A stretch of 63,996 bases of DNA, filler included, from Dimargaris cristalligena (taxonomy: Eukaryota): assembly GCA_003614675.1 (NCBI GenBank). It is 10 parts of 10 records of this genome, joined end to end, with 100 filler letters (N's around TTAATTAATTAA, not from the genome) between each part and the next. Parts side by side here need not be neighbours in the genome. Positions count along the whole stretch, not along the records: positions 1 to 6,506 come from ML003511.1; 9 more parts are not named here. One strand, 5' to 3'. Shown here one piece after another: positions 1-25,670 of the stretch. The notes under the pieces were generated by a model that was not told where the DNA came from, did no database searches, and saw only the letters and a list, made by a program, of their open reading frames with translations. The position numbers and the translations under genes are program-made. Every line of letters begins with the position of its first letter. Positions within the stretch are counted from its first letter, which is position 1.

Positions 1-18
1 GGTGTACTTCCAATAAGT

Positions 19-800
19 GCGAAAAATAGATAAAAAATAAAAGTAGGTAAAAAATATAGTAAGTTCACCACACTAGGTAAAAGGCTAATTGTTAGTGTCA
101 TCTGATGAAGTTAAAACAGATATTTATTTGTTTATCTCAAAACTAACTTGTCCCTTCAACTAAGGGGATACTACTAAGATATATATAAGAAATCAACCAA
201 ACTAAATAACTATAGCTAAGAGCAATACTGTGATAATTGTAAGTCATAAAAACCTAAAAATGGGGGGGAAATTGACCAACTGGCTAAACTATGGTTGTGA
301 ATAGGTTAAAGGGAAGTAAAATATAGAAATTGGAAGGTTGGAAGACACAGTCTTCCCAGTCCTCCTTCATATAGGATATTGATAAAACTAATAAAAGGAA
401 TTCATACTAAGAAGTTGTATGGTGTAATTCCAAGAGGGAATCCATCAGAGGCTAGTTATTCCCAAGCCCCACTCATAAAGGATTGTCAATAGAATAAAAG
501 GTGATATGGGGTGGTTAATCATTATGGTTTTAAAATCACCATTGATGTTAATAGCCTATAACTTCATCAATAATAGACGGAAAAGCAAATGGAAATATGA
601 TTTGGAAAGCTGAAGAAAAAGTGAATCAGCTAGCATAAAGAAATAAAATAACACTCACAGCCCCAGACTGTTCCCATGGAAATAACTCATCAATTATCTG
701 GGGGACCTTGAATCCATCCAAAGTATGACTACTTTTTGGATTAGTAATGGGTACTGGGGCTTACATGGCCTCTACCCAACTGCCCACAGCAGTGCATATG
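19..800. repeat. Dispersed AT/TpA-rich repeat family B (probable degenerate TIR element, left end)
   Basis: 234-797 aligns to the reverse complement of 25671-26236, and 19-72 aligns to the reverse complement of 6452-6506. Differences are almost all transitions. Confidence 0.8.
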
Positions 801-952
801 ATACTCTATAACTTTTAATTTCTACTTGGTAAGCCATTTTTAGACAGATTTAACTGTGTATTTAGGGTTATTATCCTATTAAAAGATCATTTAATCATTA
901 TTAATTTAATAATTTTCAACTATATTATTACCTAAGTTAACTACTTTTAGTC

Positions 953-1506
953 CATTAAGAATCCTAAGGATAGGCTTCTAATGATAGGTGAGGCTTAGAC
1001 TTGGCTAAGTGGGTCATTAGTATTAGACACAGGGTATAGTATTAACTAATAAAGGCTAGTAGCAGGTATATATAAGGGATATATAGTAGGGATACTTACT
1101 AGTTAGTATAAGGATATTCAACATATATAGAGTTTATTAGATAAATAGGGGGTAAGAATAAGCTGAGGAATCTAACTAGTCCCAATGGGGCCTAGTTATA
1201 TATATACAGGGATAACTCCAGAGGGAGGTCCTAAGGGAAGGATACTGCTAAGACTATGGAATAGGTAAATAGGCTAACTGGATGGCCGCTAGTACCTGGA
1301 AGACTCTGATGGTAATGGGAAGAGTCTTTGGATCAGCACTTGAGTGATTAGTGTGAATAGGCAGAGTCTAGAAGGGGAAGGGTTATATGATATAGGATAA
1401 TCCCATAGTACTGGGGGTAACCATGGGAAGGTTAATATGGTACTATAAGGCCTAATATAGTGGATATATAGTCTGGCCAGAATAAGGTATATTAGAAGGG
1501 CTGATA
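953..1506 (-). mobile_element. Degenerate solo LTR, family A (~555 bp)
   Basis: Colinear with 29355-29910 and 31511-32071, the latter with TGTCA...CAACA termini. Orientation inferred from TATA preceding AATAAA on the minus strand. Confidence 0.75.
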
Positions 1507-2245
1507 TTGTGGGATAAATTAATATATAACATATTGAAAAGGTAACCCAAATTAATCAATTATAACATAAGCTATTGAAACAAAAAGAAACATAAATATA
1601 AAAAATTGGGACTCAAAATATGGTCCCCCATTATACTTATTTTTTGTTTCACTTTTGCTGACCTTAACTGTATAATCCTCTATTACATCTACAGTTCACT
1701 TTTTGAGTATAAGTATCCTTTCAAATTGCAACAATAAACCAGCTTCACTTTTGGACTCTGTTATTCAGTGGTAGAATTGTATCAGTTTATAGCCTGCAGC
1801 TCTTCAATTATTTCATATTATTTGACTGTTGCTTATATTGCTAAGTGAGTATAACGAGTGCTAATTACTATTGTAAGAGTTTATTAATATATGCAGAAAA
1901 TGGCAGTAGGTGAGAGTAAGTGAATATAGTTTATAGACATATGGGACCAATAGTCATCTGAAGGCTGATAATGTACTGAAACATCCTTACTTTCTATATT
2001 GGAGGTTAAGATGGCCGAGAAGTCAAGGAAGGCAAACAGGTACTTATATTATCTTAAAGGATTACCTTCAACCATTCTGGTTGGGGGGGGTGGCAAGGCT
2101 GCTGCAGGATTAACCCTGATGGTGCTGCCAGCCCCGCCTTCTCCAGGGTGTCCCTCGGTTGGGGGTGGTTTTACCCTGGACACAGGCCCATCACCATGGG
2201 CTGCTTGGCTAATGCTAGATGCCTTGGCCGACCCTATATTAACAC

Positions 2246-3886
2246 TTAGTGGTGTCTAGGTATTTTCACTATACTATAGTTGTCGGGGCTTTTTGTGGTT
2301 TCGCTCCACCGAATCTTTATCGGCCGCTGCTCAACACCAGATGGGGCCAATTCCGGGAAAAATTTTGTGCGTAATTTGGCCGTAATAGTATTACGAAAGG
2401 ATTCTGCTTCTTGGTAAACGGAGTTGAAGCTAGCGACAATTGGAATTCTGAGAATAGATACATTTAAGGAAGCAGTATCCCTTATCTGTGCGAGTTTATG
2501 GTAGTCACTACCGTTTGGACTAGTCAAAAAGTCAACCTTGAGCTCCTTTGTCTCTGCCTTCCAATCCATGGCGTAAATAAAATACGGCTCAGTTTTGGCA
2601 AGAACCTTCTTGAGTACTCGAGATAGCCTTGTGTCATATGTATCTATTCTAATTTTCTCGGTGGAATTTTGCTCCCTTTGGACAACGCGATCATTTGAGC
2701 CGGACGAGACGGAAACAATTGGGCCTACCAATAGTAACCCCTTAATTAAGTTTTGATACCGACTGAATTGACCCGCTAATAGGCTTTGTAATATACTTAG
2801 ACTTATTGGGGTGGATGGTGGAGTTATGGCTTGTATTTTTCGGGACAATTCATGACAAATAGAGATGGCCTCCCGAAAAGATAAGGGTGATGGATTAGAG
2901 CTCATTGGAATTAGTTTGGTCTGTGCAACAGCGGAATTAACGAATGGTGAACCAGAGATTCCCTTCAAGACTAAAGCCGACTCCGCTTCGACAGGTGTTT
3001 CAGCAGGGTTACTAACGTAGGCATTGACACTTCCTACTCGTTGGAGGGGTGGTGAAAGAAATGGTGGACTATTCCTAGCGGGAGCTTGAGAAGTTGGAAT
3101 ACTCGTGAAACCCTTCGGATGAAAAGGTAATTGCCCGGGCTGGGGCTGGGACTGGGACTGAAACGGCTTCGATGATTGGGATTTTGAAAGCCCTTTGATT
3201 CTATGGTTCTGGGAATTACGATCATTATTGTAGGACGGTTTATCGATGCCACTATGTAAAACTGTACTGTGGTCCGATGGGGTGGTGCAACAGGAGTTGA
3301 GTTGGTTGTTGCCGAACAGATATTCACTTGTAGTCGGGTTTTCTATCCCCATATGCAGCCTCAAAGGCGGCTGCTGATAACAGCTAGAAGGTGGACTGGA
3401 TGTACTATGGGTGCTATGGTTTGGATATCCCGATGGCTTGCCCCGGGGTCGTTTGATGGGACAGGGCGGGTGTTCTTGAATGAGTGAGCAGTCTGAAATA
3501 GGGCTGTCGGTGGTGGGATAGAAGTCTGACCGGGGACCTTGGCCTATTACGTCTAATTCCACCGGCTGAGAGACCCTGCCACAGTTCGGGTCGTACGGTG
3601 GTGGAATGAAAGACCAATCGGCCAGCTCTACCTCCTCGTTAGAGGTGAATTGACGCAGCATAGTGGGATTAATGGCGTCGGGAAAATGGCCTGATGCAGG
3701 TTCACATTGCGGGGATACCATATTTTGTTCGTCGGAGTAGCAACCATACAACAGGATCATGGCTTCCTCAACGGACATATCGAAATTTGCAGTAAATTTA
3801 GGGACATCATCCATCGCACCGACCATCTGGATACCTAGCAAACCAATAACAGCTAGCCTGATTTTACCACCAGAGTCAACCAACAT
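2246..3886 (-). CDS. Orphan protein of ~546 aa with a putative signal peptide and Ser/Pro/Gln-rich middle
   Basis: Long intronless ORF. First plausible ATG at 3886 gives MLVDSGGKIRLAVIGLLGIQMVGA-MDD (basic, hydrophobic, small residue). CpG retained. No recognisable domain. Confidence 0.65.
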   Translation of the reverse strand: MLVDSGGKIRLAVIGLLGIQMVGAMDDVPKFTANFDMSVEEAMILLYGCYSDEQNMVSPQCEPASGHFPDAINPTMLRQFTSNEEVELADWSFIPPPYDPNCGRVSQPVELDVIGQGPRSDFYPTTDSPISDCSLIQEHPPCPIKRPRGKPSGYPNHSTHSTSSPPSSCYQQPPLRLHMGIENPTTSEYLFGNNQLNSCCTTPSDHSTVLHSGIDKPSYNNDRNSQNHRIKGLSKSQSSKPFQSQSQPQPGQLPFHPKGFTSIPTSQAPARNSPPFLSPPLQRVGSVNAYVSNPAETPVEAESALVLKGISGSPFVNSAVAQTKLIPMSSNPSPLSFREAISICHELSRKIQAITPPSTPISLSILQSLLAGQFSRYQNLIKGLLLVGPIVSVSSGSNDRVVQREQNSTEKIRIDTYDTRLSRVLKKVLAKTEPYFIYAMDWKAETKELKVDFLTSPNGSDYHKLAQIRDTASLNVSILRIPIVASFNSVYQEAESFRNTITAKLRTKFFPELAPSGVEQRPIKIRWSETTKSPDNYSIVKIPRHH

Positions 3887-5147
3887 TGTACTGTAATTGT
3901 TTATGGTAATGGGAGTAGGAGTGAGGATAGAACAGTAAAAATAGAAGTGAAGCAAAGTATTGGGAGAAGAGAAATTGGACTGATCGAGTACCGTTGATAA
4001 TGCGGAGGTTAGTAATTGAATAATGAACAGCATTGAAAAACGCGAAAACAGCTCAAATGAAAATAGATATGGAGCGAGACCTACTATATAAATACTAGAG
4101 GCTTGGGGGCTACAGTATGTAACCAATGGTCGAACGAGGTTCGCGCCGTTGATTTATTGGTTTAAACGGGAAACATGCACAGAAGGGAGTGCACATGTGC
4201 AATGCCCCTCCTATAGGCCATATAAAACTAGACCTAAAGTTCACGTTCAAGAAATACCCAATAAAAACCCTGACGAGCCTTCTTTGATTCATCCCTGGGA
4301 ATATATTGTTTTTTACCTGCGTTTTACTCAAGCTGGAGCTCCTGTTACGTTTTGGTTTTTCCCGATGGGTGGCCTAAAGGAGGTATGTGGTCTTTTTTGA
4401 AACCAACGTACAGGGATAACTCGATTCTACAGTGGGTAGGGTTAGCTAGGATACCACAAAATACCCGAATTTAAAGAGGGCCTTTCCCGGGATATCAATT
4501 GGGATAGAAATGGGCATGCTGCTTTCATTAAACATCTCGAGCTGTTTTGGCGATACTCGTGACCATACAATTAACAAGGCCGGGGTGTAGCAGCCTTTGG
4601 CCCAAAATACAAGTAAGGGATTTACTCAGGCCAAGGTGATTGTTATTCCACAAGCCAGTTGGTTAAAGTAGCCAACTGGCATACCTGTTGTTAGATGGGT
4701 TTTGCGCCAGATCCCTTGATGAATTGCAACACTAGTATATTAGTATGTAGAGCGGTCCAATGGTAAATCGCCTTTTGCGCACCACTGTCTCAATAGCTGA
4801 CTATGTCATTGGTAGATGCAGATGCATATTGCTCCACACAATGTGTGAATGCACGAATTGCCTTCTTTTGACCCTTTCTATTGTGATTGGGAGGTTATCT
4901 ACACGAAATAATGCCGTTAGTTGAATTTTATAATTAGGTGTAAATAGATACGAGAGATAAGTAGTTGTCCTATGCAGAAACGCAGCCGACGTCATTAAAC
5001 CATGTTGACAGTGCCCAGTCCGAAAAATAGTAAACATCTACGCCCACCATTGCCTCACCGACCATCTCAAACTTATCGCTAATAGAGCATTATATGAAAC
5101 ATGGTGCATTGTACCTACTCATTCGGGGTCGCTATTATAGGGCTAGC

Positions 5148-5338
5148 TGTAATAAAATAAGACCCTCCGAGAGGCGACTGTATTGTTATGCGGTAATGGG
5201 GACCGGGTGGGATAGAGTATAACCGGTTTATTGTATAGGAATACTAAAGGGGAGGAACGTCCACCGGCCTTAGGGGGGCGGGAGCACTTAGTTTTGATAA
5301 CAAGGGGGGTAAATCCCCCCGTCCTGCTGGTTGTTACA
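5148..5338 (-). mobile_element. Candidate short solo LTR (191 bp)
   Basis: Ends TGTAATAA...TTGTTACA (8-bp inverted, 1 mismatch) and AATAAA on the minus strand. No clean TSD and no second copy in the window. Confidence 0.35.
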
Positions 5339-6064
5339 CTATATCTGTTATTGGCTGAGTAGGCTGTTACAGCATAATAGCAAACGCGCTCCACTGGCTT
5401 GAGATCCGTTTATCGTTAAATGTCGGTTGGAAACTGGTCCACCTGAAATCTTTTATTGAACTGGCTCAAAACTTACTATAGTATTAAGACTGCGTAAAGG
5501 GTTAATTAAGAAGTAAAATTATTTTCTCGTATTCGCATAAACTATAAATTTCTAAAGTGGCAAATTTTCCATCACCAAACCATCCACCTTGATTTATACC
5601 TGGCACGTGACTGCTTAGGCTCTTGGCGACAACTACACATGTCAAATACATCAAATGTATAAATAGCCGAAATCGGACCTCTTTTCGTGGTATTCAACCC
5701 TTATTAACGCGTTATTGGAATTAATGGTTAGAGCTATTCAAGCTGACACCCTTTATGTTGCAGTTCCAAAACTATACTCATGTTATTAATGAGACACAGA
5801 TAGTTACTGACCAGGGGGTGTTTTTTGACTAACTTTATAATGCCCACTTTCTCTACCTATCTATTTATTACACCTATTCCATAAAACCCCTGACACTATT
5901 CACTATATATAGCCTCTGCCATCTAGGCGCATCCTTTAAATAGAGTTGCAGTTACCTCTCAAACCTGGCACTCCTAGCTTACTCAGTCTAATAACCTCAG
6001 GTTTATCTCTTATACATTTCACTAGTCTACTCTATTAGTTTTTATATAAAACCTTATTCCCCAC

Positions 6065-6449
6065 TATCAGCCCTCCTAATCTGACTTAATCCAGACCTAA
6101 TAATCACCCATCCCATTCCAGATTATAGTACCATATTAACCCTCCCATAGTTACCCCCAGTACTATGGGGTCATCCTTTATTATGTAACCCCACTCATTC
6201 AACCCCAACACTTTGCACTCCAAATACTCAGCTCACTGATCCAAGACTCTTCCAATTCCCATGAGAGTCTTCCTGATGCAAAGCCATCCAGTCAGGTTCT
6301 TTACTTATCCACACCTTAGTCATAGTAGTATTTCCCTTGGGACCTCCCTCTGGAGCTGTCCCTATATATATATAACTAGGCCCCACCAGGACTGGTTTAA
6401 TTCCTCAGCTTATTCATATCCCCCAGTTTACCTCAATAAACTCTATATA
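6065..6449 (+). mobile_element. Truncated LTR family A copy, inverted relative to 953-1506
   Basis: Reverse complement matches ~1122-1506 and ~29522-29910. It ends abruptly at the family-B end sequence. Confidence 0.75.
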
Positions 6450-6451
6450 TG

Positions 6452-6506
6452 CTGTGGTAAACTTACCACATTTTTTACCTACTTTTATTTTTTATCTATT
6501 TTTCGC
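6452..6506. repeat. Family B terminal sequence (inverted copy of 19-72), cut by the contig end
   Basis: Reverse complement GCGAAAAATAGATAAAAAATAAAAGTAGGTAAAAAATGTGGTAAGTTTACCACA versus 19-72, with 3 transitions. Confidence 0.8.
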
Positions 6507-6606
6507 NNNNNNNNNNNNNNNNNNNNNNNNNNNNNNNNNNNNNNNNNNNNTTAATTAATTAANNNNNNNNNNNNNNNNNNNNNNNNNNNNNNNNNNNNNN
6601 NNNNNN
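6507..6606. other. Artificial contig linker (first of nine; others at 13091, 19668, 26237, 32797, 39356, 45909, 52446, 58970, each 100 bp)
   Basis: 44 N + TTAATTAATTAA (stops in all six frames) + 44 N. Intervening contigs are 6484, 6477, 6469, 6460, 6459, 6453, 6437 and 6424 bp, i.e. size-sorted. Confidence 0.98.
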
Positions 6607-7033: not shown

Positions 7034-8002
7034 GGTTGATGTAGAATAGCAATGTGGCCAACTTCGAAAGAGGAACTGCTAGTACTGGGTCAAGAGGGAA
7101 ATAATGGGCCAAAAGTCAAAAGACGCGAAAAGAAATATAATATAAGGTGAGTTTAGCCAACAGGAATGTGTGAATTGTGTGAAAGGATAGGAGCGAAACT
7201 ATTATGTTTGTGCTGTTGTGGTCCTAAGGGTTTGTTGTTTGTAGGTCAAATTTTTGTTCAAACAGAGTTGACCGCTTCCTAGCCATACCGAACTAGCCTC
7301 CTATACACGCCACGGAAGTTATTATGGCAGGTCCTCATTTCGGTCTATTTGGTCCTGAGTACACCATGTCACAGTATATTAAATAATAGATTCGGTTTTA
7401 TAATGTTCCAGGTTATAGCAAAACCCATACTATGGTGTTATTGGGTTCTGCTTAAAATCCCATATACTCTACAGCTATCCATCAGCATTAATAGAGGGTT
7501 TCGGCATATAATCCTAAAGGAACGGTGATCAAAACTAGAGTATGTGGATATAAGTCGGTCAAGGGTTTGGTAAGTCGTGCGCTGTTTGAGGCCATTAAAA
7601 ATATTCATAGAGCCAGTCCTCAAATACTACTGCCAGTGGCTTGAGACAACCATTTGACCAAAAAAATAAAAGAATATACAATTACCAACTGGCCACAGAT
7701 TTCCTCCTTTTCGATCCGCAGGCGACCAGATTTGCAAGACAATAGGCTATTTGATATGCTGGTATAGTAATCCCGCATTCCGGCCACTCCCACTTTTTAT
7801 TGTGCTTCTCACAACACCCACGGTCTGCATTTCATTTGCATTCAATAGAATAGTAGCCATTCCCCGGAACTCCCAGCTCGTCCATTAACCACCTCATTCC
7901 GGCACTGCTGTTTACTCTCTAGTCCTACCGGGGTTAGCCTTCCTATATATACCAAACCCCCCGTTGCTCCAACCTTCGGTGTCGACCGTTCCGCTATGCC
8001 CG

Positions 8003-11000
8003 ATGCGGTCGTTTGGTGTAGTTTCCGATTCAGCCTACCCTCATGTCACTTGGCCCCAAACGCTAGTTACCGAAACCAACCGGACCCTAGACCATTACAA
8101 CCCAACCACTTATAGTTTTCAGTCTGCCACCCGTAAGAAACATGGTCCTCCCCATAAACCCAGCCCGGAAACGGCTGAACATGCCACCATGATAGTAGAG
8201 CGTCATGACCGGATGGCTAAACTGGAATTTAATAATGTGATTAGCGCTGGTAAGCGTGGTAATTGGGTATACACGCCCTCCGCCGCGACTCACGCTGCTC
8301 CTTCGTCAGCATCTGATCGTTCTTCCGATCCGGATTTTACGGGCTCGGTAGCTAGTCACGGCGGAGTACCGTCCCAGTTCGACATTGGGAGTCGGCGCCG
8401 TTATACCGGAGATTACCGCTGGGAGCAAAACCAATCACTAGACCAAAACAACCCATTTAGCTCCCTCTTCCATCTTAATTGTATCGTCCCTTACCAACAC
8501 CCCAGTTCGCGACCCTTACCGCACCTACAGCAGTGGTGTCCCAAAAACCAGACCGATCCCCTCAAGTTTCTAAGTGAGATTCATGCATCCGAGACTGATT
8601 TCCCAAGTATTTTGCGTGATATTGATCCAGTCATCCAGGCCGATTTACAGGAAACCCGCGATGCGGCCGTTTGGGATTACACCCAAGGGCTAACGTCGGC
8701 GGTATTGTTCGGACCCAGCTCATCATCCCCGGATTGTGAAAATCCAATATCCAGACCAACCCGGTGGATTGCTACAGCCGCCGGTCCACGCCATACCGAC
8801 ATTCGATTATTACCCCTTGATGAGTATCTTGGACGGCCCTACCCCAGCCCCTCACCACTATTTCGAACGCCCAAAGTGCCGTTTACCTCCACATTTAAAC
8901 TAGCGGCGGATTGGGGCCATAATGCAATGTCCTTCGCCACCCCGATCCGCGAAATCATTTCGCTATCCACATGCCGCCGGCGACTTGGACTGCACGACCC
9001 AACCCAGATACTGCCGGATTATGCCGCCATCCGCACGGCGGGCCATATCAGTGTGGGGCATTTCGATATGTGTAGTGGCGACTCTTCCTCATCTCAATTC
9101 AAACTCAGCCAGTCTTTGGCTCTGCCCTGTGAGCCTATGGGAATGGCCTTCAATCCGCACTACGGCCGCGAACTAATTTTAACCGATCGCCACCGGAACC
9201 TACGGCTATGGGATGTCAACCTAGCGAAACCTACCTGGAAGGGCTCGTTGCCCGACCCGGAAGTTCACCCGGACCACTACGGCCACCAATGGTCCGCCTG
9301 CGCCTTTGGGCACCACCCCCGAGTGTTCTGGGTGACGGACCAGCGGACTTGCCATACCATTGACACCCGGGCCCCTGAGCGGACTGGCCGTACCCTGATC
9401 TATCGCATTCCGGGCTATAACTGGCACCCCGATCGGGGTTTGCAAGCGTCCACCGGATTAGTGAGTCGCAAAAAACTCGATCGACGGCGCCTCGAATACA
9501 CGTTTGGAGGGGTCTATCGGGGAATCAAATTACTATTCCGGGTTACCGCCCCCCCGGCATGAGTACCACATCACGGCCTTAACTCCCTGCGCAGTGAACC
9601 CCTTCCAGGCTTTTATCGCCACCCATGAGAGCATTATGGCGTTCGACCAACGGGCCCCGCAACATCCTACGCTCTGGATCAATCATAACCAACCCGGCGC
9701 GGCTCCGCGGCATCTCGAAGCCTGGCGAACAACTGATATCGATTTTGGGTGGGCGTATCCTCCACCCACGTCACCCGATACCTCCGGCGGTCAGGATTCA
9801 TCGTCGGACAGTGACTCGCATTCCGATTCCGATACTTCCATCAAGCAAGAGTTCAAGACCGAGTATGAGGAACCACATGTCGAGGCCGCCTCGAGTTCAA
9901 TATTCCAAAGATCCCGGCTTGACTGCCACACCCATGAAGGCCGGTTATTTGCCTGTGACCCCGCGGACGGCTGGATCCAGAGTTATTCCTATCATAAAAT
10001 GGCTATTACTCCGTGCCAGCCCGCGGCGGATCCGGAGGGGTCAGAAGCCCAGAAGACCTTTAGCAGCCGGACCGCTCCACGGTTTAAAGGGGAGGAGGTT
10101 CAATTTAAAACCGAGCCCGAGTCTCCGCTGCCTCAGAAGACTAGACCCCAACCCGTCATTACCGCAGCTACCGTCGGCTCTTACAGTTTGGATGAGGTTT
10201 TACGGGGAGCCTCGCTCCAACCTGGAGCTACTTGTGGTATCAATCGATACCCTCAACCTAATCTCGGTCGACTACAGAAACCTGCCTCGACGGAGGATTC
10301 TAAAGGGGTCGGCATGCTCCGCCATTATCTGGCCAGTGTTCTTAACAAAGGCCCTGATGCTGAACCGGTCGACTTTAAACAATATTTGAATACCGGGTTT
10401 TCGGGGTTTTTACCCAAGTCGCAACGCCAGTATACCCATCACAATTCTAATCATCGGGCGGCCAGAATCCAAACCAAACTTGAATTATGTGTCCTCACGC
10501 CATCGTATTATGGTCCCACCGCCAGCGATGGCCACCAGTTAACTGACGAGCCCCCTCCGGTTACCCTCGGTCCCTTGGGCCCGACCCATTTACCCTGGGC
10601 CGTTTCCGATTTTATGAATGCCGTGACCCCTTACCGCCACCACCCGGCGAGCGAAATCGGGACTTACGTGGGACAAATTCCGAGTCAGCCGGCTCAATCC
10701 AATTTCCACCACCCGCCTGGCCGACGGTTCCCATCCCTGAGCGGATTGGTGATCGATCCCCAGTGGAATTTAAATAGCGGGGCCGCGGCCCCCGTACGAA
10801 CCCTGGACGCCCGTTTCCATATCTACCAAGTCATCCCCACGGGGGCGATTTACCACCAGGTGTACGGGAATGCACGCACTAGTACTTTCCTTCACGAGTG
10901 TTATGAGTGCTATTGTCACCAGCCCCACCCACAAGCCCCTGAGTGCTGCGCCACGTGCCAATCGGCTACCAAAAACGCCCGGGAGTTGGCCGAGGAATAC

Positions 11001-13090
11001 GCCCAATCGCCCAGTACCATGATGCGGGAATTGCAGCCGACGGACCGGGACCTCGCCTCCTACAACATGCGCCTGAATATACCTGTGAACCGGCGACCCG
11101 CGGAAAATGCCTGGTTATTTACGAAGGGCCCGGCAACCTTCACGGCGGACTGCTTACCGATTGAATCTCGGGAGGAAATCATGAATTACCAGCGCCATTC
11201 TCCTCGCCTGAATTTCTTTTACAGTCGGATAATCGAGGCCATTGCTAAGGCTGGAGTTGGCCGACCCCTCAGGATAGATTTGGGGGGATCGTCGTCCACC
11301 GGTCGACTAAACTACGGCTACCAAATATCCAGGGATGAAGATAGTGAAATAAATGACGGAGACTCCGGGGTTGATATCCGGGGAGCTCTGGAACCCCCTT
11401 CCAGTCCCGACGGTGTGGATCCGAAGGCGTTGGTTCAGGCCATCCAGGAAATCGTCTATCAGTACTCCTACCCCGTTACTCTAGCCCGGGTGGGCCAGTT
11501 ACTGGCGAAGGACTATTCCATTGGGGACTTATTGAGGCATTTCCCCGCCCTCGATTTAAAACCCCTCCGGGTTATCATTTCCCCCTGGCACGTAGCGGAC
11601 GGTACGCTCTTCTACCCCTCCGGTGATATCCGACAATGCTGGCACCAGATTCGATCCTACATCGAAGCCAGTGCGCAACTCGCCGACCATGTTGGACGCA
11701 CCGGGGCCATTCTGGGAATTCCCGACCCCCAAACCTATCGCCCACCCACTCCTGCTGCTACCCCGGCCGCTGGTTCTAGGCCGACCAATCCGGTGGTGAA
11801 TTCCCTGCGGAACACAGGCTCTAGTAGCCGTTCCCGCCTGGGTCCGAAAATGACCCGCTCGACCTTTGACTTTAGTTTCCCCCAGGAATCGGCTACTGCC
11901 ACATCCATGCTCACTGACCCTTCATTGGATGTCCGTAGCTCCTCTATACATAACCCGTTTCTGGATCCGTCCGTGTCGCACCCTTCGACCTTGGGCCGCT
12001 TGGCCGACCCCCTCATTCAGCGTTTATTCGACAGCATGGCCACGGAGATTGTGGGGTCGATTGTGAGCTTAATATCCCCCGCAGCCAGTGCTGATTACTT
12101 GGCGCACCTGGAGGAGACGGCTATGGCCGAGAATGAAACCCCGGGCTCTTCGTCCTCCGATTACATTGACCGCGTACCCCCGCGGGAATGTTTCGTCCGA
12201 CCGGTAGAAGAGTTGAGGCACATCGCACCCATTGCCTCCCGCCGCGAGTCCCGCCGGTTCGGCACGGCCCAGCCCCGGCAGTCCCAGCCATCCCTTCAGG
12301 ACCTTCTCCCGCCGAGTCGTACGGGCATCGTCAGCGAGCTTTACTGTAGCTACCTAGCACCGCATGCGATCCCCCTCTACCGAGGTACGGCAGTTATGTT
12401 CGAGCGCTGGAAGACCATGTGGGAAATGGACGTACCCCTCTACTACACCCGAACCCACAACCGACCCTACTACTGCACCAGTGCCGCCTACCTGGAAAAT
12501 GATCGGCCGGGCGGTCTACCTCCCGTCCGGCACTCCGAACGCCAGGTGTACCACGGGTACCGGGAGTTAGGGTTTGATACCCCCATGCCGAGGTTCCTCA
12601 AGGGTCGCCTTCTGAGCCGAGTGATACGGAGTGGTGTGGATGCCTCCCTGAACCCCACAGGCCTGACGAAATTCTTGACGGCCCCCGTAACGGAATCGTA
12701 CCGCCTCTACCCGCCCCTCATCACCGCCCGGCGGGCGATGGTGCTGACTTTCCGACCGGCCAAGACCGAGGAACTGACGCCGAGACTGACCATGCTGCTG
12801 GGTCTATTGACCCACGCCGCCACCCAGCCGGAACAGCAATTAGGGGTACCGAACCAACGGCAGGAATTGCCCCCTCTGGAACCCTACGGCCAAGTCAGTG
12901 TGGCCCATTCCCCCTACGCTAGCCAGGCCGCTCTCAAAGAAGAAATCCTGAAGCCGCTTACCGTGGTTATGGCCAAACACCAGGACGGAGCTGGTACCCC
13001 CCACGCATCCGTTTTCGCTCGCCGGCGACAGACGGTGCGTGGTCTACCGGCCTATACTGCGCCTAGCACCCCCCTGCCCCCCCCAACCCC
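8003..13090 (+). CDS. RNA polymerase I initiation factor Rrn6/TAF1C-like beta-propeller protein with long C-terminal extension (frame break at 9461-9562; 3' truncated)
   Basis: Motifs WSACAFGHHPRVFWVTDQR..IDTR (ORF 7964-9562) and FQAFIATHESIMAFDQRAPQHPTLWINH (ORF 9504-) resemble the TAF1C/Rrn6 propeller. The two ORFs overlap in different frames. Confidence 0.7.
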
Positions 13091-13649
13091 NNNNNNNNNN
13101 NNNNNNNNNNNNNNNNNNNNNNNNNNNNNNNNNNTTAATTAATTAANNNNNNNNNNNNNNNNNNNNNNNNNNNNNNNNNNNNNNNNNNNNGCATGCATCC
13201 ACCAATAGAAATATAAATAAAATTAAAGGAAAAATTTGTGTGGAAGAAATGGGTTAAAAGGGAAGGGAAAAAAACTGGATATACCAGACAAAAAAGCTGC
13301 TTCATACCTTATATATAAACATAATAATCAAATAGTAATAATTCATACCTGTGGCAATCAAGGGGACACTCCACTTTGCCACACTGGACATCCCGGGTAG
13401 TACAGATTACCCCTTCTATCATGGGAATCAATGGCTTCTAAAGCCGCGACTTACTTTATTTAGTAATTTTTCTGAGGCCCCTATATGCCCTTGGGTATAT
13501 ATGGCAGGCCTCACCCGCCCCGGCAGTACTATAGACCCTTTTCAAGGCTGGGACTTAAGTCCAGAAAACAATTAATAAGATGGGGACGGGCTAGATGAAG
13601 TAATTCACTAATTATAATAATAAAATAATGAATTTCGATGATAGAATAA

Positions 13650-13908
13650 TGTTGGAAATTCATTTCCCCCGTCCCACCAATTCCTTTACTCTGATTGGCT
13701 CGTCCTATACTCAGGACTATATTCTAATCTTTACTATATCATTCTATACCCGGGACTTTGTCCTAGTCATTATTACTACTAATTCCAACTCAATAAAACC
13801 TACCGCGGGCATCTAGCCTTGCCCCTTGCAGTTCTTTCTCTCTTCTTTAAAACATTTTAGTTGTATTCAAAGGTACTTGCATTTACTATCAAATCCATAT
13901 TTCCAACA
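13650..13908 (+). mobile_element. Solo LTR, 259 bp, nested in the DIRS 3' region
   Basis: TGTTGGAAAT...ATTTCCAACA termini, 5-bp TSD AATAA on both sides, internal AATAAA. Second copy at 39972-40230. Confidence 0.95.
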
Positions 13909-14013: not shown

Positions 14014-15000
14014 TTACCCCATTCTATCATGGGAATAATTCATCTGGACCGATCGGGCCACATTCTTATGCAGAGTTGGCCAGTTGTAATAGTCCATAAA
14101 TGTAGTCCAGACATGCCAATTTGCCGTTTTCATAATCTCTTCCTGGCTAAACCCGAGTTGGTAGGCCATTGTAGACGTGGCAGCCTGAATGGAATGGGCC
14201 AAAAAGACGTTGGTATTGATCTGGGCCTCCTGTAACAGGGATTTGATCCAGTTACCCAGAGTATCCTCTGACACCATATGGCCCCGCTTGGTAATGAATA
14301 GGGCCTGCTCTTTAGGTTGGCGGAAGGTATAGGACTTGTCAATGTAAAACCAGGTATTACAGACCGGGCATAGTCGGGAACTATCTTCCAAGGCCTGGAT
14401 GTTGATCGATTTTTGTTTACCCTCTTTGATATGGTACACCGTAATTGTCATGACCTCAGGCTGGTCACTCTCCTGGTGAAAAGTTACAGAATTCAGGGGT
14501 ACTCAGGTAAAATTGCTACGCGGTCGCCACATGGTGGTTAGACACAGTATGGCCAAGACTTTCTGGTAGAGTCAGTGCCACAGTAATACATCATTATCTG
14601 GAAGGTTGGCCAAATGGTCAATAAGCTGTTCCACCCACCAGATGGGGAGTTTCTCAATAGGCTGCACTAAATGGTCCAAGCTTTGCATAAACAGATTGAG
14701 ATGATGATGTTTTGATACTGGATTACCTGGGTACCCAATGTCCCAGGTAGAAATAATAGCCGCCTTGTGGAGTTTGATGGTATGGATACTGGCCATTTTG
14801 GAAAGTCCAGGTAGATAATTTAACAGGTTTAAGGCATCTGGTTAGCAATGATTCTTTTGCTGAGATAGGCACCAATGGGCAAACTTTTGCCAGGCATACT
14901 GGTAGGCCTTGTTAGTATTGTTACGCAGTCCTTGGCAGACACTGGTGGCAATTGCCAGCAAAATTCCCTGCTTTTTGAGGATTGCCCTGATATCTTCTAG
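14014..15000 (-). pseudogene. DIRS tyrosine recombinase, disrupted
   Basis: NTNKAYQYAWQKFAHWC, WRPRSNFT*, LCPV, HSIQAATST, ANWHVWTTFMDYY. In-frame stops; box II Arg changed to Gln. Confidence 0.85.
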
Positions 15001-16833
15001 GTGATTAATAGGAGCTGTGGGGTCAGTAGTAATAGTGGATAATCTACAATTATTGGGAGTAGGTGAGGAAACCAGGATTGGGTCTGCCAATACGGGGTCA
15101 CTAGGACCAGGGTCAATTTGCATTGCAGAACCCGATTGATCACATGGTGGATCTGGTTCCATGGTGGAAAGGTATAGACATTTTCCTGAGGCCAAGGGAA
15201 TTGAAACATGTCCTTCGAAGGTTTCTGCAGGTGGGGATAAAGGTAATAATACTAGGGAAGTTGATGATTGAGGGGACTGGCAAAGAGGTCGATCCTCAGT
15301 GGCCCCCATTTCGAATTCAGGTGCTGTAATAATGGGGCTGGGAGTACTAATTCCCGGTAGGCTGGGGTTATCTTACTCAACTGATCAGCTTCAGTATTGC
15401 AGTTGCCTGGGATATGCACCGCCTTCAGAGTTAAATTCTGGTAGGTTAATTTATTGGAAATTGCAAGGGCTAGTGATTGCAGGGCTGGTACTCAAGTACC
15501 CCCCTGCCAATTGATATACTTTAGGACAGTGGTATTGTCTGTCTGAAGTAGTAGGGACTGGTCCCGAACCCAAGCTGGTAGTTGATTGATAGCCAGCGAC
15601 CACCTTGAGTTCCTTCCAGTTGATGGTTTGTAACTAGTTAGTAGGGGACCAGAGTCTGGCCTGACGGAGGACCAGGCTCACAATCCCATAGCCTATTTTG
15701 GATGCATCTGTGAAGATGGTCATAGTAGGTAGTGGGTCCCTGTACAGGGGTTTCCCTGAATTGGTCTGCACTTGTTGGGCCCACCATTCTAACCCCAGTT
15801 GGGCCCGGGGTTCAATTTGAATGGGCTCAGTCCACATCTGATTCTGCTGGATCAAGCAGCACTGGAGTTAGCATAGGTGGATTAGTCCATTGGGTACTGC
15901 TGGTAGAGCTGAAGTTAGGGTACCCAATATGGGGGCCATCTTGTGGGCAGGGACTGTTTGGGCTTGCAGTAACTGGCAGCCCTGCAGAATTGATTGACAT
16001 TTCTTATTGGGTAGGAATGTCCGCACCTGCTGAGTATTGATGGTCATCCCCAGGAAGTCCATCCACTGGGTGGGGGTCAGAATTGATTTCTTCCAGTTGA
16101 TAGGGAACCCCAGGGTTTGTAGATGACCCAAAACTTTAGCCAAATCCTTCTGCACCTGGGTAAATAATGGGGATATAATGGCTATATAGTCCAGGTAATA
16201 GGACAATACAATTCCCTGGGCCTGAAGTGGTTTGATGGCAGCCTTCATGACCCGGGAAAAAACCACTGGGGCTGTAGCCAGGCCAAAAGGCAGGGACTGG
16301 TACTGGTACACCTGGCCCTGGCATTATATGGAAAGGTATGGCCGGGAATCCTGGTGGATAGGGACTGTTAGGTAGGCATCCTTGATATCCACATTAGTCA
16401 AGTAAGCCCTGGGGGTAATCATGGAGTTGAATACAGTTAGACCCTCCATTTTGAACCAGGGAATACAAATGAATTGGTTGATTCAGTATAAATCCACTAG
16501 TGGTTGTTATTTGTCCACTTCCTATTTCATAAACAGGTTCAAGTAGTAGCCTCACTGGTTGGTCTTGCCAAGTTCCAGGGCTTGGCACTGGCATAATTTG
16601 TTAACCACTTTGGTGATCTCTGCCTGGTCAATGGCTGTGGTATGAAAGGGCCAGGGTATCTCCCATGTGGGGGTAGATTTCCATATCACCTGATACCCAA
16701 ATTGAATAACCTGGTGCACCCAGGGGTCTTTGGTTAATTGGAGCCACTGGGGGTGAAATTGGGATAAGCAGCCCCCGGGAGCAATCCTATTGTCCAGTTT
16801 CCCATAGTGTTCAGTCATCTGCAGTGGGGCCAC
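14997..16833 (-). pseudogene. DIRS reverse transcriptase / RNase H / Dam-like methyltransferase ORF, disrupted
   Basis: Fragments 16552-16833 (GGCLSQFHPQWLQLTKDPWV), 15868-16311 (RT core), 15634-15855 (TDAS) and 14997-15209 (FPPW...LVTPYWQTQSWFP). Confidence 0.85.
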
Positions 16834-17672
16834 CTATCCCAGGCCTATTGTGGATTGGTGTTGGTTGGCTGTGATTGGCTGGTTGGTGCTGATCCTGGTT
16901 AATTGTTCGGGGGACGGCTAGGCTTTCTCCCTTAGTAGTTTTTTGAACTGGGAAATTTCCCTCAACTACTGAAGTTTCAACTATTTCTAGTCTAGTTAGT
17001 GCACTACTTGAGCAGGCTTTCATTGACCTGGTGCTGGCTATCTTGGCTTTCTTCTCAATGGATAAACTCAAGGGCTTGGTCCCCAAAGAGGATGTTGGAC
17101 TGCTGGCCAGCAATGGACATAGCCTGGTGGTGGAGATCATTGGGGATGCGGGTCTGCTGTAGCACATGCTTCTAGTGGTCTTCGGTAGTAATGGCATAGA
17201 AATGTGCATTGATAATGAACATATGTTGGATATGTTCCAAGTATTGTTCAACAGTGATGCACCCATCAGTGATGCTGTGGGCTGAGAGGGCAAGGGCAGT
17301 GAGCCCCTTACAGACTCCTTTGAATTGGCACTGGTTTTGTTCCAATAGGGTATCATAGGCCAGTTCTTTGGCCCCCAATTTTTTTTACCAGTGGGGTTCC
17401 AGTCGGGGTGTACATAGCCACTTGTCCAAAGACTTTGGAACCAAGTCCACAAGGGTGGTGAGTGTGGGCCCTGTAAGGATGTACTGCTTTGGATCCTCAA
17501 AGCACAGTTTGGTGATTTCGGGTTGGAGTTTGGGCCGGCCCTCATCCAATCGGCGGACAATTCTGATTGGCTGGGAATGAGTAATCTCTTCCAGCTGTTG
17601 GCGTAGCACAATGATGATTTCTTTGGAGTCATCATCGGGTCCGTTTTGAGTGAGGTACTCATAGTTGGTCAT
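16811..17672 (-). pseudogene. DIRS gag-like ORF1, disrupted
   Basis: ORF fragments 17385-17672 and 17172-17378 are in the same frame, separated by a stop, and lie upstream of and overlapping the RT ORF. Identity assigned from position only. Confidence 0.55.
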
Positions 17673-17837
17673 AACAGTTTTTAAGGCAGCTTGCCAGTTA
17701 GACGGATGGAAAGAAGAATATTTTTATTTAAAAGTAAAGTAAATAAGTATGGTATCAGGCACTGTAAAGTCACAGAGTCGCAGGCTTTAAAAGGGTCTAT
17801 AGTACTACTGGTTGAAAATAAACATCCCAACAATCTT

Positions 17838-19667: not shown

Positions 19668-22166
19668 NNNNNNNNNNNNNNNNNNNNNNNNNNNNNNNNN
19701 NNNNNNNNNNNTTAATTAATTAANNNNNNNNNNNNNNNNNNNNNNNNNNNNNNNNNNNNNNNNNNNNAACGGAGCTTACCATCCTGTTGGGTGAGCAGGT
19801 CTTAATTCCGGCAGAGTTGCAGGATATAGCAGGGATATGATACTGGCAGATATGAAAACAGAAAAGGGAAATATAAAGTGGGAGAATGGAAGATAGAGAG
19901 AATGTGAGACTAGTAATACGGGGCTGGCTGGTAATGCGAAGCTGCCTCTTTCCGAAAGGCACCAAGTTAGCATACTGTATAGCAAGAACTCAGCAGGGAC
20001 TTCCGAACCGTCTATAATTCAAATGTATGCCCAATAATCACCCACAGACTTGTTCCCATAGCGCCTGATGAGATGAGAAATCGAATTCCGCTCCAGCGCT
20101 CTACAACTTCCATCCAATTCGACTGACCAATACCAATCACGTGTTTGGTTTCTTGGTAAGATATACGACAGCCTCTGGGATGTATGCTGCGGCACGTTTA
20201 GTAGTGCGCGATGAGAAGCTAACTCCAAACATCAGCTTACCCAGTATGCAGTATAGTGACACAAATGTCCATCAAGACTCATTCCGTTTCGGGCCAATTA
20301 TTATCATACCATGTCGAATGTCAAGAATGATAACGATAATGCATCGCCACAAGACATCGATGGCGAGTGATTCGGAGGTTGTTATAAACTCGCAGTTGAT
20401 TATGTAGTACCGATTGGTAGTGGAAATAATAAATTATTAGGGGGTCCGAGTGACAGTGATTAGAGATGGCAAAAATTTATTTTTACAAATATGTGAATTG
20501 GGTTTAATACCCACTGTATAAAAAAACGATAATAAAAGGGTGGATTGACATGATATAAAACAAAGAAATATTTTCACCAAAGAAATGTAAAGCAGAAAGT
20601 ATAGCCACCACGTCATTGTTGGAACGCCAGCCATGGGTTGTCCATGGATGAAGCTAAAGGCACCATATAATTGGAAAGGATTACATCCATTGTCTAATCT
20701 CAGCCATATTCAGAGGTCCATTTTGTAATTAGTTGAGTGTGAAAATCCAGTATAAATAGACTGGAATCACTCGGGGGTGGCTGTGTCATAACTAAGATCC
20801 CAGAATACGCAAACATATCAATATAATAACCAGCAAAAAGTATTAGCCAGTTATTAAACTGATACCAGATTATATTAATCCTAATTCGTAGTATTCGTAC
20901 CCGGCGGCCTGGGATTTATAGGGACCCTTGGCCTGCGGGTGTCATAGTCCCAATACATTACTGTATCGGGAACCGAATGGCCATCCTGAGATGGATGGAT
21001 TGTAATATTATTGGTCTGCATTGTCACAGAGGCCTGGCCATCTGTTGGGTTATGGTGACCAGGGGTGGGTGGACAAGTAGGATTCAGGTCAATTTGGGAT
21101 GGCCCCGGAGGTGTGTTAAAAAATGACATGTTTTTAATGGTCTTGATAGCAGATTTAAGGAAAAATAATAGAAAATTGAGCTGGGTGATTTGGTAGGAAG
21201 CACACTTGCTATTTTATATCCAAAACCCCGACCTTGTTATTTTTAAGGTGGCTGCCACCACTATCTAAAAGTGCCACACTAACAATGGGGTATTCTGGAA
21301 TAATAATAAACAGTAGGAGTACTGCCCTCTCCCCTCCTTGTGACCGGACATTTCCAAACACACAATAGTCACTGAAGCATTGTAAAAAGTCAACCGTGAA
21401 GTGCCTCTTTGTTGGTTTGTGGATCAGTAAGCCCTCAGCCCAAATCATTCTTCACTTATTCAATATGCCAAATACAGGGGATACCAGGATATTTTCCACC
21501 ACATCCCCACCAGATGGCCTCAATTTATTCAGCAATTTCATGGTATTTCACGATGGGAAATAATGGTATGGTGATGCCTTCATGATTGTTTAAGCATAGT
21601 CACCATGCTATCCCCATGATCATTTTTACGCCAGTCATATTGCAGGGCCAAAGCCAAGGATTTTAATGGGTACATAAGAACGGGGTAAGGTAATAATTGG
21701 AAATTGACATTGTTGGTAATTGAACCACCCATGTTTAAATAGTGCTACTGTGTTCTGCGTGGTCTGGCCGTCTGTTTGTGAAGAGCTGTATATGAACATA
21801 TTCCTAATTAAACTATTGCATCGACTCGTTTAAGAGCAGTACATAATAATTACAACAAAAAATCGACTGTCCAACCCAATGTTTATGATAACTTTTCTTC
21901 ACTTTATTGAAATAGTGCAAATCAGTGTTGTAAGTTGGGTGTAAAACAATAAGGCATAGGAAATCCGGGGATCCATTGATAGGGAGCGGAAGTCCGAATT
22001 TAAGAAATGTATGCTTTGGCAATGGGAAGTGTAGTAAAATAGGATCTAATTTGTAGCGAATGTTACAGATGCGGTGGACACAGCCAGCGGCCTGGTGCAT
22101 TAGCGATAAAGTTGTTGGAAGTAAATGTTATGGATGGTTGGGTGGTGTAGACCTTTGCTATAAGAA

Positions 22167-22628
22167 TGTTGAAGCTGTACTACCGAGGGGATCCGGCACT
22201 GGCCAATCACCCCATGCAGCTGTGGCCCCGACTAGGCCGACTCAGAGCCCTAGTTCACTCATAGCTACCGATACACCCGATGATACTACAAGGGTACCCA
22301 CCGAGGGTATCCTTGCCACAATAGCACTCGGTACAGTACCAGAAGGTTCTATCTGGTCCCCCAAGAGCACCAAAACCATAGCCCCTCTCGGTAATCGGGC
22401 CCTGGGCCAATGGCCACATGTGCCGGCGGGTCCAGAAATTAACCAGTATAAAACGAACCACCGGTCCACCCAAATAGAAGCCCTAAATGACTACGCTCCT
22501 ACTCGCTTCATGATATTTTACTATCACCGGACTTATACATCTCACACTCTTTTTTACCAGTATTATTAAATAAGGCACTCTTTCTTAGCTATCCACGCTC
22601 GTACGTACTCACTCTTAGCACACTAACA
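22167..22628 (+). mobile_element. Candidate solo LTR (~460 bp)
   Basis: TGTT...AACA termini, GC-rich 5' part, TATAAAA at ~22447, T-rich 3' part. AAGAA lies on the left flank and 2 bp off the right end, so the TSD is imperfect. Confidence 0.5.
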
Positions 22629-23799
22629 TGAAGAATTATTGGAACACATGACAAAATTCGCACTTACCCAATGAGTAAGCCGCCATTCTTTTGGAATAGG
22701 TGTACTCTCGGCCCTGGGACTTTCAGGAATATTGAAAAGGTGACATCCACAATGTAACCAAGCCATATAACTGTGTATATTGGCATTGGCAGATGCAGAT
22801 AGTTTATATTAAATTGGTTACATTTGGGAACTAAATAATATCCAACAATGCTTCTGCCATATGTCCCTTTCAGATGACTCGGCTTCCCAAACTGAAGGAA
22901 TGTAGTGCTCCATTACACTCATATGGGGCAGGAATATCACTTGCCAACTGGCCTGGGGTGATCAAGGGTGCCATGGCCCTTCCATCTTGTAAGCACTGTC
23001 CACCTTTTTTTCTGCAGTGGATGATTCCAGGTTAAATTCACAATCTTCAAACATGATGAAAAACCTTTGTTTAAAAATGAATAATAAAAATGTGTGGCTC
23101 ATATGACCACTTGGCCGTCTTGACCCTGTGGTGAGGCCATTTGGTGTTTTTCTGTATAGTATCGCCCTTATCCAGTTATGGTACCCTTTACACTGGCCTG
23201 GGTGATGTATGCCACCACTTGGTATAAATGTGGCCACCTCCCCACCCACTATGGTCTTCAATTAACATTTATATGACTGTTGTCCACTTTTTAAATGCCT
23301 ACTTCAAGAAATATACATTTAAGGAACAAGAATTGTATCAACAGGGACTACCCTGTTGCCGACCCACGAGCACCTATAAAGCCTATCAAATGGCTTCTCA
23401 GGAAGGTAAGCTACAAAATTTGTATTTATGTATATATTATTATCTATTATCGTTATCCTAAGAAATAGTGGGGTAAACTACTGTTTATATATGTCTCTGG
23501 GATACACACTTCTTGACATAAAAGTGCTTAAGATGACTATACCATTTTCCCGCTTTGTGACAGCATCATCGGTGTCAGTAATGGGGTAGTGGCTTATACT
23601 ATCAATGAAGTTGGAATAGCCACTCCATTATGCTGGTTTTATTATAACTTTCTTCCAATCGAAACCACATACTATATTTTAGATGCTATTTTTACTAATC
23701 TAGATTTTGCTGGATATTTCTTGCATTCCTCTTATTTGTATGTTAATATATAATAGATTAAACGGCTGTTCGTCTCCCGTAAATGAACAGCATTCCTTA

Positions 23800-23948
23800 T
23801 CATCCGTATCGAACCCCGAATATACACTATTTGGGTACCAGCCCATATCCGCCCGCATTCCGGCTAGACTGATAGCAGAGTAATATGTCTACTGCGTTGC
23901 CATTGAATTAAATCATTACACGATAACGGATTACCCTAGAATTATCCT
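23800..23948. repeat. Dispersed repeat family E, segment 1
   Basis: AACCCCGAATATACACTATT.GG.A.CAGCCCATAT and GATAAC.GAT.ACCCT..AATTATCC recur at 41693-41820. Confidence 0.7.
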
Positions 23949-24063
23949 CATCAATCCTACAGCCACTTTTGCTGATATCTCAATCTAAGAGTAATTATTA
24001 CTCTTCATATCATAGAACTGTTACTTCTAACCCGATGGCTGGGCGCAGTTCTATTGGGACTAA

Positions 24064-24759
24064 TGTGGCTCCACCCTTGGCCGAAGATAGTATGTTATGG
24101 GACCACGGCAAGCAGGGGACTGGCTATCCAGAAACCCCAATACTGGGCGAAGAATAACCCCAGCTCACCATTACACTAACCCCGAACTCCAAGGTGCTTA
24201 TCATCATTACCAAACGCATACTGGACATGATGCCACTGTTGATGCTGTGCCACCGGGGGTGTCCAGTACCGGGCCGGGTGGCCTATATAGCCGGGCAGCT
24301 GGCTAGGCCACTCTAGATACAGATATCACCCTGACCCCCGGCACATCCTGAGGACACTCTAGGGGGTATCAATGGGAATAGTCGAGTCACATCAACACCA
24401 CTTATATCGCCGGTGTGTGCTGGCTGCACTTACCAGTACATTAATTTTAGGGTTCCCAACGTGGCGTAGCAATCCTCAGGACCAGTGACCCAGCCAGCCC
24501 GGCGGATCAATACATCTCTTTTCGGCCGAGAATCAAGAGGGATTCCAGTATATATATAAAAACAGCCGAGTAGCTCTTAAGTAATCCTCTAGATGCCTAC
24601 ACCCCTACTCCATTAATTGCTATTAGGCGCTCTCCAGTTAATTCATCCTCTTTAGTTATTAATAAACCACTTATTTCATCATCTATTACATTCTTATACT
24701 CGTAAATACTCGAAACCAACACCACCCCGCTTCACCAGGTCTATCCCAAGGTTGCTACA
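24064..24759 (+). mobile_element. Candidate solo LTR (~696 bp) lying between two family E segments
   Basis: TGTGGC...GCTACA termini, TATATATATAAA at ~24550, AATAAA at 24661. Flanks ACTAA/CTTAA are only a partial TSD. Confidence 0.55.
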
Positions 24760-25109
24760 CTTAATGGGAGTAAATCTGCAACTACTAGGTATTAGTAGCC
24801 GTACACAATAGAATCAGAACCGACTATAAAAGGGGTATTTTAGTTGTCTCATTGAAGTTTCCTTAGTTTACTAGCAATTTCTATTGCCACTCTATCACTT
24901 TGCTTATATCTCCTTTGCTACATCACCTTAATAAAGCGCGCCTCTTTCTCACTTATTCAACTGTATAAATAGCTACGAAACTGCCTATCTATTAATGCAG
25001 TGACCGAATATAACCCACGTTCTTTGAAACTATCTTGCTTAGTATCAGGTCATATAATTATTTAGTATCCTATAAGTATTCCCCCTTATTCCTGACCTCT
25101 CCAGTTGTA

Positions 25110-25200
25110 GGGACACCAATACCCTCCATACTCCTGTTCTCCCGAGCCCCTACCTTGGACCCACGTACCCTCTCTGTCTGAAATGCCATATGTGTACCAG
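25110..25200. repeat. Dispersed repeat family E, segment 2
   Basis: CCCTCC(A/G)TAC.CCTGTTCTCCC...CGTACCCTC...GCCATAT recurs at 41878-41956 and, more diverged, at 43006-43085. Confidence 0.7.
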
Positions 25201-25670
25201 TACTTTACAACACCAACCTATACCCCTTGCTTGTGCCTGATACTCCCTTGATCACCGTGAGTCCATCTACATAAACACCAACCGAACATGCCTTTATTTT
25301 CTAGACATCAGAATACTTGGCTGGCTCTCTTGATATTAACTGGAATTACCTTTCCAGCCTATCTATAGCATCTTCACCTATTCGTCACAATGATAATCAT
25401 TGTTGTGTTATTTACCATGTCTGCCATATAGCACCCCTCCATATTGACAACTCCAGCCCTCCATTACCCCCCTGAACAGGCTAGAATATTCAAGTTTTAT
25501 CCAATAAAGCAACCAAGAGGCTGCAAAATTCAGTATTATTGGACTATATTTTGTTGAATTATAAAAACCATATTATCCATCTATTTTTTATCTATGATCA
25601 TAATAAATCCTATTTTTAAAGCAACAAGCACTTTTTTATTATATAGGATCATTTCATTATCAAATGTAAG

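Follow-up and report, generated by a model that had tools for sequence, protein, structure and literature searches.

The stretch of DNA analysed here, a window of 63,996 bases from Dimargaris cristalligena, raises the question of whether repeats in an early-diverging fungus lose cytosines at both CpG and CpA, and whether such losses reflect a RIP-like mutagenic defence. The first-pass annotation had proposed such a defence from the comparison of two copies of one repeat, and had guessed that the host was an early-diverging fungus. The guess was correct: D. cristalligena is placed by the NCBI taxonomy in Kickxellomycota, Kickxellomycotina, Dimargaritales.

Nine identical 100-nt blocks divide the window into ten pieces, and the eight complete pieces descend in length from 6,484 to 6,424 nt (Table 1). 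Chaining by spacers is the customary handling of unplaced contigs. As the ten pieces are unplaced and artificially chained, the distance, orientation and synteny of features spanning the joins are meaningless. This applies directly to the focal repeat (family X), of which one copy lies in piece 1 (1-6506) and the other in piece 4 (19768-26236). The second had been described as an inverted copy, but the two copies sit on separate unplaced contigs that were artificially joined, and neither their orientation nor their distance can be read as a physical arrangement. The two ends of contig 1 (19-72 and 6453-6506) are 94% inverted copies of one another, at a depth of about 97 and 180 times the single-copy level. 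Other contig ends also match (26462-26521 with 32737-32796, and 28681-28731 with 39305-39355), and the assembly seems to break within a few abundant repeats.

Table 1. Features of the window, with composition and RIP indices (rc, reverse complement; o/e, observed over expected)
Feature	Position	Strand	Remarks	TpA/ApT	(CpA+TpG)/(ApC+GpT)	CRI
Artificial joins	6507-6606, 13091-13190, 19668-19767, 26237-26336, 32797-32896	.	44 N + TTAATTAATTAA + 44 N			
Artificial joins, rest	39356-39455, 45909-46008, 52446-52545, 58970-59069	.	44 N + TTAATTAATTAA + 44 N			
Family X repeat, copy 1	234-792	+	CpG o/e 0.05, CpA/TpG o/e 1.12, TpA o/e 0.93	0.86	1.42	-0.56
Family X repeat, copy 2	25675-26236	-	CpG o/e 0.15; truncated exactly by contig end at 26236	0.80	1.53	-0.73
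LTR-A copy A1	936-1529	+	Most decayed copy; TpA o/e 1.70, CpA/TpG o/e 0.67	1.39	0.79	+0.60
LTR-A copy A2	29328-29910	+	TGTCACC...GGGCCAATA	1.27	1.08	+0.19
LTR-A copy A3	31484-32069	+	TGTCACC...GGGCCAACA	1.43	1.03	+0.40
LTR-A copy A4	6042-6454	-	Partial, near contig end; CpG absent	1.02	1.22	-0.20
LTR-A internal region	29911-31483		Between two LTR-A copies	0.95	1.36	-0.41
CpG-poor flank	1530-2245	.	Single-copy by depth; 5 CpG in 716 nt; CpA/TpG o/e 1.12-1.24			
ORF, 635 aa	2246-4153	-	Without Pfam family; single-copy; 80 CpG, o/e 0.84; CpG-rich neighbour of repeats			
Degenerate DIRS-like (tyrosine-recombinase) retroelement	14014-17700	-	CpG o/e 0.22, CpA/TpG 1.30, TpA 0.87	0.81	1.44	-0.64
Young repeat pair	13650-13908 with rc(39972-40230)	+ (first copy)	92% identical; CpG retained, o/e 0.66 and 0.94			
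BRO1/palA ORF	35342-37246		100% identical to a Dimargaris cristalligena protein; next match Tieghemiomyces, 44%			

Family X and the second sizeable family, LTR-A, are truly multi-copy. The summed word depth of family X in sequencing run X1 is 14-28 times the single-copy level, and LTR-A stands at 55-78 times single copy, reaching 180 times where the contig ends. The sequence of contig 1 was reproduced in two public runs: 705-1181 in an X1 contig with 0 differing letters, 708-1153 in X5 with 1, and a 4,662-nt single-copy contig (1432-6093) with 0 (X1) and 4 (X5) differences. Three of these four differences (1865, 2524 and 3854) are places where X5 reads C and both the window and X1 read T, which suggests that X5 is a slightly different strain or haplotype. 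According to the accessible text of a review (PMC10386755), D. cristalligena may be non-haploid. A more sensitive self-BLAST of the window uncovered no additional sizeable repeat pairs.

To obtain the spectrum of family X, 234-792 was aligned with the reverse complement of 25675-26236. Among the 558 ungapped columns, 492 are identical (88.2%), 52 are transitions and 14 are transversions. Transitions do predominate, as the first-pass annotation had stated for slightly wider limits (234-797 and 25671-26236), and all eight word pairs that it quoted are found in the alignment. C/T differences were tallied on both strands, and the 3' neighbour was required to be identical in both copies. Differences were counted at 19 of 70 CpA, 4 of 54 CpC, 6 of 54 CpT and all 4 CpG sites, and six more sites oppose CA in one copy to TG in the other. 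Such CA/TG doubles are the classic mark of an ancestral CpG that was deaminated on opposite strands in two copies. Both proposed classes of change, at CpG and at CpA, therefore exist in the focal pair as well as in LTR-A (below), and CpA remains ahead of CpC and CpT once CpG-derived sites are removed (19/70 vs 10/108 in family X).

A direction-free test on family X gave the same picture, with differences at 19 of 136 YpA sites versus 10 of 267 YpC and YpT sites (Fisher p = 3.5e-4). When a null model of saturating CpG decay and uniform non-CpG C>T change was simulated, including the indirect route (CG>TG>TA vs CG>CA), a mean of 8.9 YpA differences was obtained and 19 were reached in 0 of 300 runs. 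We looked in family X for an effect of the 5' base or of the base following CpA (CAN) and saw none. At NYG differences the 5' bases were A (1), C (2), G (1) and T (0), a tally limited by the few CpG that remain. In the TpCpG hypermutation of basidiomycetes, a 5' T is preferred at the mutated CpG. Strand-coherent tracts were absent from the two X copies by a runs test that has low power for old copies (15 runs vs 14.7 expected, and 10 vs 11.4). As only two copies of family X are present in the window, its mutations cannot be polarised.

Polarity was obtained from LTR-A, whose four copies are 74-85% identical to one another. In the four-way alignment, where an invariant 3' neighbour was required, C/T polymorphism was found in 37 of 44 CpA-bearing columns, compared with 13 of 54 for CpC and 15 of 57 for CpT (OR 15.7, p = 2e-11). 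With four copies, singletons can be assigned to terminal branches. C>T singletons were present at 9 of 16 CpA, 5 of 34 CpC and 3 of 29 CpT sites (8 of 63 for CpC and CpT together; OR 8.8, p = 6e-4), whereas T>C singletons were not raised at TpA (10/60, vs 3/24 at TpC and 5/30 at TpT; p = 0.8). Because C>T is raised at CpA and T>C is not raised at TpA, the excess in LTR-A is directional, from CpA to TpA, and is more than the mark of a fast-evolving dinucleotide. Outside CpA the per-site frequency of T>C equals that of C>T, and no CpG remains in the alignment columns. The annotation had also cited the ends of one LTR-A copy. TATCA at 29355 and CAATA at 29906-29910 do face the TGTCA and CAACA of the copy at 31484-32069, but 29355 is not the terminus, as the repeat begins 27 nt upstream with TGTCACC (29328 and 31484).

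When seven independent alignments were pooled, differences were found at 71 of 203 CpA sites versus 52 of 387 CpC and CpT sites (Mantel-Haenszel OR 5.4). Taken by themselves, the five small pairs (15/89 vs 14/168, p = 0.06) were suggestive and not significant. In the young pair, differences fell at 5 of 13 CpG, 3 of 22 CpA, 1 of 25 CpC and 0 of 28 CpT sites. The six pairwise comparisons of LTR-A copies contained 1-12 CA/TG double sites, with transitions to transversions at 79:40, 70:25, 41:35, 46:9, 48:22 and 77:29 (ratios of 1.2-5.1, compared with 3.7 for the 52:14 of family X). Sizeable-family support for the CpA excess comes from two families in 64 kb, and would at this scale amount to a modest lead rather than a demonstration.

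The composition of the window agrees with the claim that CpG loss is limited to repeats and short flanks, genes being at CpG o/e 0.93-1.01. The per-kb CpG profile is bimodal, with CpG o/e at 0.00-0.22 in X, LTR-A and the DIRS-like element versus 0.93-1.01 in four genes, where CpA/TpG is 0.92-1.0 and TpA 0.57-0.99. CpA/TpG o/e is raised (1.12-1.30) in X, in the DIRS-like element and in the LTR-A internal region, as expected of the products of CpG deamination; the LTR-A copies, at 0.67-1.06, are not enriched. The CpG-poor zone reaches ~700 nt past LTR-A into single-copy DNA and ends at the 635-aa ORF. As this flank is CpG-poor and has kept its CpA/TpG, compared with 0.67 in the adjoining LTR-A copy, the loss of CpG extends outward from the repeat, which is apparently not true of the loss of CpA. 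The composition of the flank and of the genes gives a hint that the CpA component is bound to the repeat itself; the window holds no alignable single-copy control. A further ORF of more than 1,200 aa (9465-13090, + strand), without a Pfam family, has a normal CpG content. It overlaps the end of the ORF at 7889-9562, which has a weak, sub-threshold match to a TAF1C beta-propeller.

RIP is commonly recognised by TpA/ApT above 0.89, (CpA+TpG)/(ApC+GpT) below 1.03 and CRI above 0. The focal repeat and the DIRS-like element fail these classical composition indices, and LTR-A is mixed, with CRI above 0 in three of the four copies (Table 1). LTR-A may be TA-rich by origin. The DIRS-like element, with its numerous stops and frameshifts, shows CpG decay and no build-up of TpA. 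An RVT_1 domain lies in its ORF 15868-16323, and its ORF 14014-14502 matches Phage_integrase weakly. The nearest protein matches of the element, from fish, nematode and metagenome, are only 39% identical, none being named as Dimargaris. Elsewhere in the window, a 222-nt inverted repeat (43990-44211 and 45398-45619, 95% complementary) encloses 1,186 nt of AT-rich DNA with a CpG o/e of 0.10; the segment 43990-45619 may be a candidate non-autonomous element with terminal inverted repeats.

How the spectrum relates to known systems was then considered. Canonical RIP, as in Neurospora and other Pezizomycotina, is RID-dependent, premeiotic and CpA-preferring. The Dimargaris repeats resemble it in their repeat-associated C:G>T:A changes, in the excess at CpA over CpC and CpT and in the positive CRI reached by LTR-A copies. 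They differ from it in that CpG is apparently the primary target (4/4 plus the six doubles in X), transitions are far from nearly exclusive, the focal CRI is negative, no strand-coherent tracts were found in X and the host lies outside Dikarya. The pattern is partly like RIP, through C-to-T change at CpA in repeats, and falls outside the canonical definition. In Zymoseptoria tritici, according to the accessible text of PMC8016269, methylated TEs undergo C>T mutation at CpA during mitosis in a Dim2-dependent manner; the mutations are limited to methylated repeat regions, and a DNMT1-family enzyme, not RID, is proposed to be responsible. CpG is not mutated at high rates in that system according to the same text, whereas CpG loss dominates in Dimargaris; the CpA excess is present here, and CpG is not spared.

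A likeness is also found in the decay of methylated TEs by 5mC deamination in basidiomycetes and truffles. CpG-poor repeats, CpG-normal genes, raised TpG/CpA and CA/TG pairs are all shared with the cases described in the available part of PMC4352252. CpG depletion in repeats and not in genes is found in the window, as are the reciprocal TpG/CpA excess and the CA/TG differences. What differs is the extra directional C>T at CpA, an excess not explicable by CpG deamination alone. Within the same part of PMC4352252, the TEs of Tuber melanosporum show predominant loss at CpG and secondary loss at CpA, the same rank order as in the Dimargaris repeats. Tuber, however, belongs to the ascomycetes and has homologues of RID and Dim2, whereas Dimargaris is a kickxellomycete.

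Outside Dikarya, a composite-RIP-index signal that suggests RIP has been described, with caveats, for a related lineage, the Entomophthorales (Zoopagomycota), in the accessible text of PMC11105155. As a RIP-like signal was thus already suggested in another order of Zoopagomycota, the claim made for the window is less unprecedented than the first-pass annotation had assumed. The evidence is of different kinds: the composition of sequence windows only in the part of PMC11105155 that covers Entomophthorales, and an alignment-based, partly polarised spectrum with mostly negative composition indices in Dimargaritales. A kingdom-wide k-mer screen reported RIP-like signatures as unique to Ascomycota, as far as the available text goes (PMC12543289). 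DIM-2-type enzymes occur in early-diverging fungi according to the accessible part of a review (PMC7862722, citing Bewick 2019), and AMF retain DNMT1, DNMT2, DNMT5, DIM-2 and RID according to that of PMC8298701. Our search of the literature on methylation, DNMTs or RIP-like decay in Dimargaris and Kickxellomycotina found nothing specific to them, and supplements may carry per-species DNMT tables.

The defence proposed by the annotation would be an active, homology-triggered one, in which a dedicated methyltransferase/deaminase pathway mutates the CpG and CpA of duplicated DNA in bursts. In its favour is the directional CpA>TpA excess in repeats. It is also in keeping with such a pathway that the family with the highest copy number, LTR-A (55-180 times single copy), is the most CpA-depleted, its A1 copy having the highest CRI, that the single-copy CpG-poor flank beside LTR-A retains CpA/TpG, and that the hint from the composite index in Entomophthorales is accompanied by methyltransferases of RID-like domain architecture (accessible text of PMC11105155). 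Against such a defence, CRI is negative (-0.41 to -0.73) in X, in the DIRS-like element and in the LTR-A internal region, the transition ratios of 1.2-5.1 are far below near-exclusive transitions, T>C equals C>T per site outside CpA, no strand-coherent runs were detected in the X copies, CpG seems to be the main target, and the k-mer screen saw RIP-like signatures in Ascomycota only (PMC12543289, available text). We consider an active defence of this kind unlikely.

If CpG-only methylation decay were combined with a genome-wide bias, dependent on the neighbouring base, towards C>T at CpA, the CpA class would have no link to repeats or methylation. Such a bias would fit an effect that is moderate in the direction-free test (about 2-4 fold) and a focal repeat that retains abundant CpA/TpG; moreover, the repeat restriction of the CpA class rests on composition, in a window with no alignable single-copy control. 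It is nevertheless quite improbable, as the genes and the putatively unmethylated AT-rich stretches have neither a CpA/TpG deficit nor a TpA excess, and the polarised LTR-A excess, about 4-6 fold, is above the non-CpG context effects of other eukaryotes, which are smaller. A family-history or assembly artefact, in which a context bias is mimicked by misalignment, by differences that mark subfamilies or by collapsed repeats assembled into chimeric contigs, appears very unlikely. Each family numbers from tens to over 100 copies, and short-read contigs can be mosaics of them, but none of these sources should vary with the 3' neighbour. The alignments contain hardly any gaps, two unrelated families share the bias, with a weaker form of it in the small pairs, and the pieces of contig 1 were reproduced in two runs with 0-4 differences.

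A possible trace of subfamily structure is seen at the sites where nearly all other copies in the runs differ from contig 1, 40 of which were listed among 899 variable places. The 33 transitions among these 40 of 899 comprise 19 sites with T here and C in the others and 14 with C here and T in the others, the latter suggesting subfamily structure. The 19 sites, a set selected against hypermutable positions, show no CpA bias (CpC 7, CpT 6, CpA 5, CpG 1). Eight of the 14 are at CpA, as would be expected equally of hypermutable CpA and of subfamily structure. These 40 listed sites of 899 neither confirm nor refute the CpA excess.

The explanation that we favour, and regard as on balance probable, is a methyltransferase-linked decay of silenced repeats, in which CpG would be hit far more than CpA, and CpA more than CpC or CpT. 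Directly observed are the C-to-T spectrum, the polarity that it shows in one family and the contrast with genes. Sensitivity to the 3' neighbour and not to the 5' base is how C5-methyltransferases recognise DNA, and makes methylation-type decay most likely. APOBEC/AID-type deaminases read the 5' neighbour; deamination of this type was considered and rejected, as solely the 3' neighbour matters here. On this view X and LTR-A are high-copy, dead repeats derived from retroelements, whose copies have diverged chiefly through C:G-to-T:A transitions at a rate set by the nucleotide that follows the cytosine on its 3' side. Nearly all CpG has gone, CpA mutates at roughly 4-8 times background, and CpC and CpT stay at background, a level that matches change in the opposite direction, from T to C. 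The silenced repeats would presumably carry dense methylation at CpG and weaker methylation at CpA, and the cytosines there would decay either by spontaneous deamination of 5mC or by deamination assisted by a methyltransferase of the DNMT1/DIM-2 class. From the sequence we infer methylation itself, the enzyme and any homology trigger.

CpG-free repeats beside CpG-normal genes are indirect evidence that transposons are, or recently were, methylated in this little-studied mycoparasite. CpG decay limited to TEs is commonplace, and outside Dikarya a CpA component is not yet an established fact. The CpA component would be the part of interest, as a hint that the repeat-acting enzyme is perhaps not strictly CpG-specific; alignment-based spectra might then reveal, outside Dikarya, a RIP-like decay that has escaped k-mer screens. 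Such decay would bear on when the repeat-directed mutagenesis of fungi arose. A dual CpG/CpA, repeat-directed, methyltransferase-linked C-to-T mutator in Dimargaritales is a doubtful proposition at present. If it were true, RIP-like defence would predate Dikarya or would have arisen independently in Kickxellomycota, against the conclusion, in the accessible text of PMC12543289, that Ascomycota alone carry such signatures. On a separate matter, D. cristalligena is named in the available part of a 2026 study (PMC13533422) as the sole non-zoosporic MycoCosm fungus to match a giant-virus major capsid protein profile, an observation with a bearing on foreign DNA in its genome but none on the window.
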